Source of the DNA: Escherichia coli
GTDB lineage: Bacteria; Pseudomonadota; Gammaproteobacteria; Enterobacterales; Enterobacteriaceae
Length of the DNA stretch: 64,000 nucleotides
Strand: one strand, 5' to 3'
NCBI RefSeq assembly: GCF_029227855.1
Contig: NZ_CP074356.1
Positions 1 to 63,445 of this stretch are shown here, one piece after another (within the stretch, counting starts at the first letter, position 1; each line of letters begins with the position of its first letter). The notes below the pieces were generated by a model. It was not told where the DNA came from. It did not search any database and was given only the letters and a program-made list of their open reading frames with translations. The position numbers were made by a program, and so were the translations under genes.

Positions 1-5656
<5,656 letters not shown>

Positions 5657-7035: not shown

Positions 7036-7125
7036 GGAGAGATGCCGGAGCGGCTGAACGGACCGGTCTCGAAAACCGGAGTAGGGGCAACTCTACCGGG
7101 GGTTCAAATCCCCCTCTCTCCGCCA
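7036..7125 (+). tRNA. serU: tRNA-Ser (anticodon CGA); prophage attachment target
   Basis: GGAGAGATGCCGGAGCGGCTGAACGGACCGGTCTCGAAAACCGG...CCCCCTCTCTCCGCCA, 90 nt with long variable arm; its 3' 62 nt are repeated at 63384..63445. Confidence 0.9.
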
Positions 7126-10999: not shown

Positions 11000-11191
11000 T
11001 TAAAATCCTGCCGGGATTTCGTTATTATCCTGGTGAATAACTTTATCGACCGGATAACAGTTGCCTGGAATTTTCTGTTCGGTTGCTGCTGCCATACATT
11101 CCTGCATTGTTCTGTGAACACTGACTGCAATATCAACTGGCTCTCCGGAAACAAGAAAAACCGTCAGAATAAGTGCAAATACTGGATTCAT
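11000..11191 (-). CDS. ydfD: YdfD-like small secreted/lysis protein (63 aa)
   Basis: MNPVFALILTVFLVSGEPVD..., directly downstream of dicB as in Qin; start chosen at the internal ATG with hydrophobic N-terminus. Confidence 0.5.
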   Translation of the reverse strand: MNPVFALILTVFLVSGEPVDIAVSVHRTMQECMAAATEQKIPGNCYPVDKVIHQDNNEIPAGF

Positions 11192-11376
11192 TGTGCACAT
11201 CCTTTTGGCATCAGACGTAAACGGGCCAGCATTGAAACAATGCATACTTTATTTAATAACTCCCGTTCGTGTTTTCTTTTGTTAATGGCCTCTTCAGTAA
11301 ATACAGGATTACTGATAGTGACACCAATTTCAAAACAACCTTCAGACGTATTAACGTTTGGTAATAACGTTTTCAT
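11188..11376 (-). CDS. dicB: Cell-division inhibitor DicB (62 aa)
   Basis: MKTLLPNVNTSEGCFEIGVTISNPVFTEEAINKRK...LMPKGCAQ matches recalled Qin DicB; DicF lies just upstream. Confidence 0.7.
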   Translation of the reverse strand: MKTLLPNVNTSEGCFEIGVTISNPVFTEEAINKRKHERELLNKVCIVSMLARLRLMPKGCAQ

Positions 11377-11549
11377 TATCGCGCCCCAACAATGAGTTTT
11401 GTGATGCGGTGCCTGGTGCCTCCAGGTGACGTTAACCAGTTAACAATTAACGCCGGATACAGAGAATCCACCCATAACACTGTTTTTGGTTTTAACTGTT
11501 CCGCGTGCGCTTAGCCGCATTCACCGCATCACAAAATTCACTTTAAAAA

Positions 11550-11602
11550 GGGCGGCAGAGCAGTCACGGAGTAAAACTGATACCGCCAAACGTCACCAGA
11601 AA
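11550..11602 (-). ncRNA. dicF: DicF small regulatory RNA (53 nt) with 3' hairpin and U-tract
   Basis: Minus strand reads TTTCTGGTGACGTTTGGCGGTATCAGTTTTACTCCGTGACTGCTCTGCCGCCC followed by TTTTT; matches recalled DicF. Confidence 0.7.
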
Positions 11603-11943
11603 ATTGATAACAGAGGGCGTTGCAGCGGGGTTGTCACTTAAGCGTATGGTCAACCTGACAACCCGGTGTCCTCAACGGGGGAAGGAATAACCCCGCCATA
11701 CTTACCGCCGCGCCATTTCGCGGATTGCCACAACCGGAAGCGCACGGTCGACGAAAATTTAACGACAGGCTATCTATGAACCAGCTACCTCGCCGTGCGC
11801 TTTCGCGTTATGGTCTGACTTTTCAGGGAAATATCCTTTCAGTAAACTGTCAGTGCCGGATGCTCACCCGTGTCCGGCGCACGCACTCCACCTCACCCGT
11901 GGAGAACTCCTTAATTACTAACCTTAGCTTTGTTGATTAGCTA

Positions 11944-12162
11944 CTAACGCGGGTATGTAATCATTCTGGCAATGCTTAATGCCGCTGCTTTTTCCAGATT
12001 GGTGATATCCTGCTCCAGAGCGGACAGATTTTCAGCCTGCTTAGCCCTGGCTTCATTAGCCCATTTCAGATCCTGCGCTGCATTAATTTTCTGGCGCATC
12101 CACTCATAAAGTTCATCATCGGTATAGTCTGGCGCGATGATGACGGGTTCTCGTTTCTGCAC
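11944..12162 (-). CDS. ydfC: YdfC-like protein (72 aa)
   Basis: ORF MQKREPVIIAPDYTDDELYEWMRQKINAAQDLKW...; position and length as ydfC in the Qin dicB operon. Confidence 0.6.
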   Translation of the reverse strand: MQKREPVIIAPDYTDDELYEWMRQKINAAQDLKWANEARAKQAENLSALEQDITNLEKAAALSIARMITYPR

Positions 12163-12191
12163 GCTGATTCCTCGCGGTGCTGTTTCGCTTA

Positions 12192-12320
12192 TCAGCCGTT
12201 AGATTTTGCCGAACTGGAAAGCGCCTGTTTAAATTCGCTGAAGCTGAGAGCTTCTTCGCCTTCGGCAAGGCCTTCGAAGTATTCTTCGTAAGCCTTTTCC
12301 ATGATTGTGTCGAAATCCAT
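12192..12320 (-). CDS. ydfB: YdfB-like small protein (42 aa)
   Basis: Hand-translated MDFDTIMEKAYEEYFEGLAEGEEALSFSEFKQALSSSAKSNG; below track length cutoff. Confidence 0.5.
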   Translation of the reverse strand: MDFDTIMEKAYEEYFEGLAEGEEALSFSEFKQALSSSAKSNG

Positions 12321-12321
12321 A

Positions 12322-12477
12322 TCACCCACCTGAATTTCTTTCCAGCCAGCGACGCGCTCCAGATTCGGTTTTAAACGTTTTGCTTTTGGTATACGTCATT
12401 GCGGTGAAGGTGCCGTCCTGGTTGGGAAACACGCCGTACACCAGAGATTCGTTGTTGCCAAGATCGATAGTATCCAT
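12322..12477 (-). CDS. ydfA: YdfA-like small protein (51 aa)
   Basis: Internal ATG of track ORF 12322..12558 gives the 51-aa MDTIDLGNNESLVYGVFPNQDGTF... product; first gene of the dicB-type operon. Confidence 0.5.
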   Translation of the reverse strand: MDTIDLGNNESLVYGVFPNQDGTFTAMTYTKSKTFKTESGARRWLERNSGG

Positions 12478-12774
12478 GCTGACCTCATTTCCCCTTAACG
12501 CCGGGGTAGCGGAACAAAAACCTGCTGCATAGTTATTAAAGTTGAACCCTGCCGTCATGTTCTTACGCCTCGGGCTGGCTACTTAACCCCTGACCACTGC
12601 CTGGTAACTCGAAGTATTGCCCTGCATTCTGTGGGGCGGGGTGGGTGGTAGGTATATAATGTACTTTTCGTTCATTGTTGTAAAGTACTTTTAGTACATT
12701 TTGTGTGTAAAAAAATGAGATGGGATAAAGTGAAGCACAAACCCGGAGGAAGGCGCTACCGGATTTATGCTGGT

Positions 12775-13194
12775 TTAAGAGGCTTTTTGTTTTTTCTTTC
12801 GTGCTAACTCTTCGTAAATTGCATTGTACTTCTGTTTTTTCTCTTCAAGAGTTTTTAAAAGTTCATCTGTCTCACTGTCAGGGAGCTCGTCCAGAAGGTC
12901 AATGATGATTTTTTGTCTTGGATTTAACTCCTGATAGAAACGTACCTGTCCACTTTCTTCTGTATCCTCTCCCAAAAGATAGGTTGGTGTTGTTCCTATT
13001 AGTGTTGCTAATTCCCTTAATTTCTCCCGGCGAGGAATTGTTTCGCCATTAAACCATTTGCTAACCGCTTTTGGTGTTAATTTCATTCGACGGGCAATTT
13101 CTGCCTGCCTTCCATGTTGTTCATAACCAGCGTTTTCACAGGCTAGCGCAAGCCTACTGGCGAACTCTTTACGCGCTTTATCTTCATGAACCAT
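12775..13194 (-). CDS. Prophage repressor, HTH XRE family (DicA/RacR-like)
   Basis: 139 aa with N-terminal HTH (..QAEIARRMKLTPKAVSKWFNGETIP..); divergent from a Cro-like gene. Confidence 0.8.
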   Translation of the reverse strand: MVHEDKARKEFASRLALACENAGYEQHGRQAEIARRMKLTPKAVSKWFNGETIPRREKLRELATLIGTTPTYLLGEDTEESGQVRFYQELNPRQKIIIDLLDELPDSETDELLKTLEEKKQKYNAIYEELARKKKQKAS

Positions 13195-13273
13195 AAGTTC
13201 AATGATATTCGCTCTTGAATGTACTGTCAGTTCTGTTATAGCATGTACTCAAAGTTCACATTGTGAGGGTGAT

Positions 13274-13528
13274 ATGAACCAGAAAACACTTGAAGATGTA
13301 ATCAAAACTGTTCGCGTTGCTGTTGTGGCCGACGTTTGTGGTGTCAGCCAAAGAGCAATCTATAAATGGATGGATAACGGAAAATTGCCTCGCACAGAAT
13401 ATACCGGCGAAACAAATTACGCTGAAAAAATCGCTCTTGCATCAAACGGATTATTTTCTGCCGATGCAATTTTAACTATTGGCAGGAATAAAACTACTAC
13501 GAAAAAGCTGATGGGAGTTGATTCATGA
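13274..13528 (+). CDS. Cro/DicC-like small HTH regulator (84 aa)
   Basis: MNQKTLEDVIKTVRVAVVADVCGVSQRAIYKWMDNGKLP..; divergent from the repressor; start set at the ATG at 13274. Confidence 0.6.
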   Translation: MNQKTLEDVIKTVRVAVVADVCGVSQRAIYKWMDNGKLPRTEYTGETNYAEKIALASNGLFSADAILTIGRNKTTTKKLMGVDS

Positions 13529-13950
13529 AAATCAAGCATGAACACATCCGCATGGCGATGAATGCCTGGGCGCATCCGGACGGCGAAAAAGTACCGGCTG
13601 TGAAAATTACCAAAGCGTATTTCGAGCTGGGAATGACGTTCCCGGAACTGTATGACGACAGCCATCCGGAAGCCCTGGCTCGCAATACTCAGAAAATTTT
13701 CCGCTGGGTGGAGAAAGACACCCCTGATGCGGTTAAAAAAATTCAGGCGTTGTTACCAGCTATCGAAAAAGCAATGCCACCTCTGCTGGTGGCCCGAATG
13801 CGCAGTCATAGCTCAGCCTATTTTCGGGAACTAGTGGAGACGCGGGAACGACTGGTGAGAGACGCTGATGATTTTGTCGCAGTGGCGATCGCTGGTTTCA
13901 ACCAGATGAATCGTGGTGGCCCTGCAGGAAATATTGTGGCTGTGCATTGA
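13525..13950 (+). CDS. YdaT-like (CII-like) regulator, 141 aa
   Basis: Position after cro-like gene and before the replication gene, start overlapping the upstream stop; family assignment recalled from Rac ydaS-ydaT-ydaU organisation. Confidence 0.65.
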   Translation: MKIKHEHIRMAMNAWAHPDGEKVPAVKITKAYFELGMTFPELYDDSHPEALARNTQKIFRWVEKDTPDAVKKIQALLPAIEKAMPPLLVARMRSHSSAYFRELVETRERLVRDADDFVAVAIAGFNQMNRGGPAGNIVAVH

Positions 13951-27101: not shown

Positions 27102-30782
<3,681 letters not shown>

Positions 30783-30802
<20 letters not shown>

Positions 30803-63383: not shown

Positions 63384-63445
63384 CGGTCTCGAAAACCGGA
63401 GTAGGGGCAACTCTACCGGGGGTTCAAATCCCCCTCTCTCCGCCA
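63384..63445 (+). repeat. Prophage right attachment site: 62-bp copy of the serU 3' end
   Basis: CGGTCTCGAAAACCGGAGTAGGGGCAACTCTACCGGGGGTTCAAATCCCCCTCTCTCCGCCA identical to 7064..7125. Confidence 0.85.

Follow-up and report, generated by a model that had tools for sequence, protein, structure and literature searches.

The immunity switches closest to the one described here are those of the phages HK022, HK75, and 933W. The GenBank record of HK75, which is labeled "similar to HK022", places three operators, oR1 to oR3, at -64/-40/-7 and also annotates OFR, oL1 to oL3, pR, and pL. The record of 933W gives 15-bp sites oR1, oR2, and oR3 at -63/-39/-7 from cI, together with pR and pM. The 933W repressor binds 15-bp symmetric sites, five of which occur naturally and in which positions 2 to 5 are critical; in its recognition helix, S41, K42, and K46 are the specificity determinants, K42 and K46 contacting the DNA (PMC3317979). 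No OL3 exists in 933W, and the repressor activates PRM first, complete repression being reached at an approximately 4-fold-higher concentration (PMC5977221). HK022 CI binds cooperatively, with looping between OL and OR (PMC8053113), whereas 933W CI does not bind cooperatively.

Two further systems bear on the comparison. The operator of DicA, Oc, is TTGTTAGTCATAACTAACAA, i.e., TTGTTAGT-N4-ACTAACAA (PMC3441716), and for the Qin prophage, a DicA/Gifsy-type induction route, by an antirepressor or a bistable switch, has been described (PMC10448788). The operators of PaaR2 and YdaS are 18-bp palindromes with the half-site GTTTAGTAA (PMC8630535), and the published site of YdaT is TTGATT-N6-AATCAA (PMC9986795). 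Both paaR2 and lambda cI provide precedents for leaderless mRNAs (PMC8630535). Tritos, a phage related to the prophage considered below, is temperate and forms plaques; in its lysogens, transcription of CI exceeds background 24-fold (PMC9928086).

In the 64-kb stretch of Escherichia coli DNA that we analyzed (the window), a preliminary description had reported repeated GTACT motifs on either side of a repressor gene and had interpreted them as operator sites for a DicA-like repressor that controls a dicB-type operon in one direction and cro in the other. This interpretation is essentially right. The GTACT motifs are very probably half-sites of five operators, which together make up the OL and OR of a Tritos-like lambdoid prophage and to which dimers of the adjacent 139-aa repressor bind. 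As far as the literature and the records consulted show, this operator set has not been individually described before: the Tritos record carries no operator annotation, and the word "operator" is absent from the LF82 paper (PMC9928086). A search of full-text literature for the half-site strings returned nothing relevant.

Results

Prophage context and immunity cassette

The window contains the whole prophage, which lies between 62-bp direct repeats at tRNA-Ser(cga) (7064-7125 and 63384-63445). Its control region comprises the following genes and elements.

11188..12558, minus strand: leftward operon from PL, comprising ydfA, ydfB, ydfC, DicF, and dicB
11188..11376, minus strand: dicB
11550..11601, minus strand: DicF sRNA (76.7 bits)
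11944..12162, minus strand: ydfC
12192..12329, minus strand: ydfB
12322..12558, minus strand: ydfA (DUF1391)
12651..13518: exchangeable immunity cassette with PL/OL, the repressor gene, OR/PR/PRM, and cro; all five sites lie inside
12775..13194, minus strand: repressor gene, 139 aa, HTH_3; DNA-binding domain of the HK022/933W CI type and DicA-like C-terminal domain
13274..13528, plus strand: Cro-like gene, 84 aa; 56% identity to the HK022-type Cro of HK75
13518..13535: YdaT (CII analogue) site TTGATTCATGAAAATCAA where cro meets ydaT, matching TTGATT-N6-AATCAA exactly
13525..13950, plus strand: ydaT-like gene for a CII-like regulator (Pfam YdaT_toxin; phrog_163 CII-like activator, 1.8e-44)

The leftward genes share 97% identity with the K-12 Qin dicBF operon, a homology that ends at 12515, outside the operators. 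The limits of the exchangeable cassette follow from two heteroimmune phages, vB_EcoS-689R5 and vB_EcoS-640R1, whose flanks are 96 to 99% identical to those of the window up to 12650/12643 and again from 13519/13520, with another repressor and another cro in between; no motif match occurs in either of these cassettes. The left edge of the cassette lies only 5 to 9 bp from the PL -10 and OL1. With the corresponding module of Tritos, a phage of E. coli LF82, identity reaches 98.7%, and the Tritos operators differ from those of the window only at uncontacted spacer bases of OL1 and OR1. The module is found in 1,020 of 5,426 complete E. coli genomes (at least 80% of a 1.3-kb query present). The YdaT site at the end of cro points to a PRE-like establishment input.

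Five operator sites

We readily recovered the GTACT repeats in both intergenic regions beside the repressor gene: the four strings quoted in the preliminary description occur at 12658, 12684, 13218, and 13241, once each. Between 12560 and 13273, GTACT/AGTAC is present seven times, whereas its frequency in the remainder of the window predicts 0.78 (about 9-fold; Poisson P = 1.7e-5), and four of the six copies of the 7-mer ATGTACT in the 64-kb window fall within the operator region. By a repeat search and by reading of the sequence, the GTACT cores were recognized as half-sites of a 15-bp imperfect palindrome, TGWAC-N5-GTWCA. When TGTACTNNNAGTACA was searched for in the 64 kb with up to two mismatches, exactly four matches, the sites of the preliminary description, were returned (12660-12674, 12684-12698, 13220-13234, and 13244-13258), forming an OL1/OL2 pair and an OR2/OR1 pair with a spacing of 24 bp, start to start, in each. 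Relaxation of the half-site to TGWAC brought out a fifth, exact site (OR3), so that the region holds five sites with no or one mismatch to the palindrome.

12660..12674: OL1, TGTACTTTTCGTTCA; exact match to TGWAC-N5-GTWCA; 14.8 bits; in the PL spacer and -10
12684..12698: OL2, AGTACTTTTAGTACA; one mismatch; 16.7 bits; adjoins the PL -35, with one base in common
13187..13201: OR3, TGAACCATAAGTTCA; exact match; 21.3 bits, the window's best; centered on the repressor ATG (13194..13192)
13220..13234: OR2, TGTACTGTCAGTTCT; one mismatch; 16.1 bits; in the PR spacer, with the PRM -35 inside
13244..13258: OR1, TGTACTCAAAGTTCA; exact match; 19.6 bits; over the predicted PR start

The scores derive from a weight matrix for which 43 sites of other loci, among them the annotated 933W and HK75 sites and none from the window, served as the training set. 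This matrix ranks the five sites 1 to 5 in the 64 kb (21.3, 19.6, 16.7, 16.1, and 14.8 bits), and shuffled sequence yields 0.28 matches at the score of the fifth. Likewise, 5 of the window's 19 matches with at most one mismatch to the palindrome lie within 12478-13273, where 0.18 would be expected (P = 1.2e-6). The sixth-ranked matrix match (29647-29661) is located inside a 533-aa open reading frame and was taken as chance.

While the GTACT repeats of the preliminary description stood, the 15-bp palindromic unit and the site OR3 had been missed, the latter because it contains no GTACT. Read in the direction of the repressor gene, OR3 is TGAACTTATGGTTCA, identical to both oR1 and oR3 of HK75, and its right half forms codons 2 and 3 of the repressor, which explains the invariant MV(H/Q) N terminus. 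The three OR sites are positioned at -64/-40/-7 from the repressor ATG, a layout found identically in locus L090, and OL and OR are some 520 bp apart. On the left side, a candidate OL3 at the position equivalent to HK75 oL3, TCTCATTTTTTTACA, has four mismatches as read by eye and was rejected. Motif and matrix scans of the window did not find an OFR-like site downstream of cro.

Promoters

Three promoter-like sequences accompany the sites.

12656..12684, minus strand: PL-like promoter TTTACA-17-CATTAT from the promoter scan (-35 at 12684..12679, -10 at 12661..12656), directed towards ydfA-ydfB-ydfC-DicF-dicB
13202..13230, minus strand: PRM-like promoter CTGACA-17-TATCAT, scored 10/12 in the promoter scan (-35 at 13230..13225, -10 at 13207..13202)
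13215..13242, plus strand: PR-like promoter TTGAAT-16-(TGt)TATAGC, read from the sequence and predicted to drive cro-ydaT

The sites overlap the leftward promoter of ydfABC-dicF-dicB as well as the rightward promoter of cro-ydaT, in agreement with the claim that a dicB-type operon and cro are controlled in the two directions. The PL hexamers, as TTTACA-17-CATTAT/CATATT, are kept in Salmonella and Raoultella relatives, and HK75 has its annotated pL at the corresponding position. Transcription would be expected to begin near 12649 from PL and near 13249 from PR. The -35 of PRM lies inside OR2, and its -10 adjoins OR3, with 7 nt left between its end and the ATG in all relatives; TAnnnT and CTGAnA are position-conserved in 23 distinct loci, and the 933W record has pM at the same place. 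Since the PRM -10 is 7 nt from the ATG and no Shine-Dalgarno sequence is visible before it, the repressor mRNA is, given the transcription start predicted from this spacing, likely leaderless.

PR combines TTGAAT (13215-13220), a spacer of 16 nt, and a TGtTATAGC -10 (13237-13242); its counterpart in the aligned HK75 and 933W sequences is their annotated pR. The promoter scan did not list it because the -10 (TATAGC) ends in C, without the usual final T, for which the extended TG motif presumably compensates. A plus-strand promoter at TATAAT (12655-12660) was rejected; it has no -35 and would run antisense to the repressor gene. The PL leader RNA (12478-12650, minus strand) showed no unusual fold (z = +1.5), which gives no support to a put-like or nut-like structured element there.

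The repressor

By sequence comparison, the repressor is a chimera, residues ~1 to 80 being of the HK022/933W CI type and residues ~90 to 139 being DicA-like. The connection to HK022 and 933W emerged from a tblastn search of phage records with the DNA-binding domain, which gave 57 to 58% identity of this 80-aa N-terminal domain to the CI proteins of HK022 and HK75 and 51% to that of 933W. The repressor aligns with HK75 CI at 47% identity over 97 aa. In its recognition helix, TPKAVSKW, K42 and K46 are conserved, and V44I is the sole difference from the HK022 type. The C-terminal domain is 32% identical to that of DicA (E = 3e-8), and the NCBIfam DicA model NF007257 matches residues 29 to 137 with 56.8 bits, below its cut-off of 101. 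No match to a Peptidase_S24 domain was obtained for the 139-aa protein. The term "DicA-like" in the preliminary description is thus appropriate for the C-terminal half of the repressor but not for its DNA-binding domain.

Conservation in relatives

A scan of viral contigs with the repressor returned 80 loci that were 99 to 100% identical and uninformative on conservation; diverged homologues were used instead. These relatives, with 62 to 72% identity in the DNA-binding domain, include a short Salmonella form and S24-peptidase forms from Raoultella and from metagenomes. Every one of them has three upstream TGWAC-N5-GTWCA sites with spacings of 24 and 33 bp, the last lying over the ATG. Downstream, an OL pair 24 bp apart is present in Salmonella and Raoultella, separated from the repressor gene by genes on the same strand (higBA in Salmonella and a gene for a 480-aa AAA ATPase in Raoultella); the two metagenome loci, in which the sequence reaches less than 700 bp past the repressor gene, show no such pair.

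A one-genome-per-species scan using an alignment of the DNA-binding domain yielded 29 loci, with sites at -64/-40/-7 in Enterobacter, Kluyvera, Tatumella, Erwinia, Pantoea, Providencia, Vibrio, Photobacterium, Salinicola, and Pseudomonas; in some of these loci, the site positions are shifted by a constant owing to the tblastn start. This layout is present in 23 distinct loci, with Escherichia and Salmonella also among the genera, within surrounding sequence that is fully diverged. An ungapped stack of the 23 loci has its information concentrated in the three operators and the promoter hexamers, the rest being scrambled, and the ATG is at OR3+7 in 25 of 25 relatives. The OL pair of the relatives is 24 to 25 bp apart and lies at a variable distance. 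In Pasteurellaceae, the motif recurs in another arrangement. Of three weak partial matches from Firmicutes/Mollicutes (L115, L116, and L118), none has a site beside the repressor match; two of these loci contain no match to the motif, and the third contains one unrelated match 1.7 kb away.

Discussion

Judged from its DNA and protein sequences, the locus carries an ordinary set of lambdoid operators, whose specificity class is that of HK022/933W. With HK022 and HK75, it has in common the 15-bp operator TGAAC-N5-GTWCA, the oR positions -64/-40/-7, and the way in which sites overlap pL and pR. The CI proteins of these phages contain an S24 autopeptidase, however, whereas the window repressor has a DicA-like C-terminal helical domain instead; HK75 has OFR and three oL sites, whereas the window has no OFR and no convincing OL3. 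In HK022, the flanks are nun and cII, but in the window they are ydfABC-dicBF and ydaT. The likeness to 933W extends to a 15-bp rotationally symmetric site, positions 2 to 5 (G, A/T, A, and C) of which are conserved in the half-sites of the window, to a set of five sites (three OR, two OL, and no OL3), to an oR3 over the cI start and a pM -35 inside oR2, and to K42 and K46 of the repressor. In 933W, though, the half-sites begin with C (CGTAC), the helix is SSKGVSKW, and CI is S24-cleavable.

The DicA/DicC region of Qin resembles the locus in its downstream ydfABC-dicF-dicB operon, in the placing of the operon's promoter downstream of the repressor gene, and in its lambdoid layout, and DicA, likewise a short repressor, has a homologous C-terminal domain and lacks a cleavage domain. 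The two regions differ in operator sequence, in recognition helix, and in Cro, to which DicC is unrelated, and their immunity cassettes are not homologous at the DNA level. The PaaR2/YdaS/YdaT region of CP-933P has its own similarities to the window, namely, a short non-S24 repressor, a probably leaderless repressor mRNA, an operon of a Cro-like gene and ydaT, and the exact YdaT OM site at the cro/ydaT junction. It differs in that no toxin-antitoxin genes follow the repressor gene in the window. The PaaR2/YdaS half-site itself has no match with up to one mismatch in 12400-13400.

Since both domains of the repressor can be aligned with DicA (29% identity, E = 5e-15) and the same ydfABC-dicF-dicB operon lies downstream, the sites could be DicA-type operators and the locus simply a dicAC allele. 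We regard this as very improbable. Comparison with the dicA operators, a check that the preliminary description had suggested, found no counterpart of Oc in the region, with no match at up to four mismatches near the locus; the recognition helix is TPKAVSKW, compared with SHVSVSQW in DicA; no BLASTP alignment exists between the window Cro and DicC; the score against the DicA model falls far short of its cut-off; and the homology to Qin stops before the operators are reached. Even less credible is an origin of the repeats in chance similarity among AT-rich promoter sequences that are not binding sites. It is true that the intergenic regions are AT-rich and that ATGTACT is not enriched window-wide (6 copies versus 5.1 expected), but the matches to the full palindrome are clustered (P about 1e-6), a matrix built independently of the window puts the five sites at its top, and half-sites and spacing are kept across very divergent loci in which spacers and flanks are not. 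Moreover, the heteroimmune cassettes are devoid of the sites.

Somewhat more room, though still little, can be given to the view that the sites are used by Cro alone or by the repressor alone and are not shared, which we consider unlikely. Both proteins co-vary with the sites, and the sequence by itself does not tell which of the two uses them. However, repressor and Cro have common operators in the lambdoid switches so far studied, namely, in lambda and, by annotation, in 933W and HK022, and the footprints of PaaR2 and YdaS overlap in CP-933P (PMC8630535). A use independent of the repressor is further countered by three relatives (L087, L088, and L091) that keep the OR triple and the repressor without a cro open reading frame, which implies that the sites track the repressor at least. 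From homology and co-inheritance, we infer that the repressor and Cro both bind the sites physically. Being homologous in position and sequence to the annotated sites of 933W and HK75, and traveling with the cassette, the five sites very probably act as operators for the adjacent repressor, as was originally proposed.

With five operators shared by repressor and Cro, a lambdoid mode of control can be envisaged. Because OL2 adjoins the -35 of PL and OL1 fills its spacer and -10, repressor bound at both sites would occlude RNA polymerase at this promoter, and ydfABC-dicF-dicB and the genes beyond would be silenced. At OR1 and OR2, the repressor would occlude PR and thereby silence cro-ydaT and replication. 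By analogy with 933W, OR2 occupancy may stimulate PRM, although the sequence cannot decide between activation and repression, because the PRM -35 lies inside OR2. OR3 covers the predicted start of the probably leaderless mRNA; its occupation at high repressor levels would block initiation and result in negative autoregulation. Cro, as an HK022-type homologue, is expected on the same five sites, and OR3 would be its likely first target.

Induction of the prophage probably proceeds independently of RecA-stimulated cleavage, via an antirepressor or a bistable flip, because the DicA-like C-terminal half of the repressor replaces the S24 autopeptidase. The window contains no LexA box, and no antirepressor is annotated in phage Tritos. 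Together with the lack of an S24 domain, this makes a DicA/Gifsy-type antirepressor or bistable route probable.

We also put forward, tentatively and at rather less than even chances, that the module is a natural domain swap, in which a DNA-binding domain, operators, and Cro of HK022 specificity are joined to a DicA-type noncleavable C terminus and in which the repressor works on HK022-type operators in trans. Such binding in trans is suggested by the identical OR3 and by the difference of only one residue in the recognition helix. In this scenario, the lysogen would be immune to HK022-immunity phages, and the repressor would be dominant and "ind-"-like, so that SOS-inducible prophages of the same specificity residing in the same cell would stay silent after DNA damage. 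In turn, an HK022-type CI would control dicBF expression at the window locus. With the module in ~1,020 of 5,426 complete E. coli genomes, cross-talk of this kind could be common. The predictions of cross-immunity and of SOS independence are now directly testable.

Our analysis fixes the cis-regulatory map (OL1-2, OR1-3, PL, PR, PRM, and the YdaT site) of a module that is carried by about one-fifth of complete E. coli genomes and by the plaque-forming Tritos of the Crohn's-associated strain LF82. The current understanding of lambdoid switches is not overturned by it, and its modest interest lies in the chimeric repressor and the possible HK022-type cross-immunity. Across the relatives, one operator/recognition-helix specificity and the -64/-40/-7 layout are conserved from Enterobacterales to Vibrio and Pseudomonas, and the C-terminal signal-sensing domain of the repressor is exchanged between S24 and DicA-like forms. 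An S24 motif is present in 19 of the 25 relatives that have such operators, and the DicA-like tail occurs among them only in the E. coli type of the window and in the Salmonella type.

Results and discussion

The operator OR3 (window 13187-13201) extends into the repressor gene, where codons 2 and 3 (ATG GTT CAT, 13186-13194) also form its right half-site, GTTCA. An MV(H/Q) N terminus is found in all 25 repressor relatives examined, the ATG lying 7 nucleotides into OR3 in each. Therefore, the N terminus of the repressor protein is constrained by the operator. A further regulatory site is predicted:

13518-13535, recognition site for YdaT, the CII analogue, TTGATTCATGAAAATCAA

This site, an exact fit to the published TTGATT-N6-AATCAA, is positioned where cro stops and ydaT starts, as is likewise the case in CP-933P, and it falls exactly on the right-hand boundary of the exchangeable immunity cassette, homology to the heteroimmune phages restarting at 13519/13520.

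Among loci encoding relatives of the repressor, the space between the repressor gene and the OL pair can hold additional genes, with OL and PL displaced outward along with them. In Salmonella (L082 and L083, 2553-3255), these are a higB-like toxin gene and an HTH antitoxin gene; in Raoultella (L085, 2808-4250), the additional gene encodes a 480-aa AAA_15/AAA_21 ATPase. Both cases are comparable to rexAB of lambda and to paaA2-parE2 of CP-933P.

In three metagenome and Enterobacter loci (L087, L088, and L091), the same OR triple (at about 1937-2008 or 4937-5008) accompanies a repressor of the S24 type. Directly downstream of them come an antiterminator-Q-like gene and a holin/lysis cassette, with no intervening cro ORF, a placement that is unusual for this switch. 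The Pasteurellaceae loci (L107 to L111; Volucribacter, Haemophilus, and Gallibacterium) share the operator motif but differ in layout, having two sites separated by 57 to 58 bp, at positions of about -86 and -28 relative to the start of the repressor. A third site is located 29 to 30 bp upstream of the OL pair in four of these five loci; the remaining one, L108, carries the pair without it.

Two further elements of the prophage belong to the PL operon:

11550-11601, minus strand, DicF sRNA (Rfam, 76.7 bits)
11188-11376, minus strand, DicB, 62 aa

The sequence here is 97% identical to that of the Qin prophage of K-12, although the immunity cassettes differ.

A sixth site in the window fits the operator consensus exactly:

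29647-29661, TGAACTGTTCGTTCA, 14.79 bits, about equal to OL1

This match is internal to a 533-aa ORF (29201..30802), far from all early promoters, and is probably due to chance, as 0.28 matches of such a score are expected per window.

The prophage is probably bounded by a perfect direct repeat of 62 bp:

7064-7125, probable attL or attR, 3' part of tRNA-Ser(cga) (7036-7125)
63384-63445, second copy, the probable partner site

If these copies are taken as attL and attR, the entire prophage of approximately 56 kb is contained in the window.
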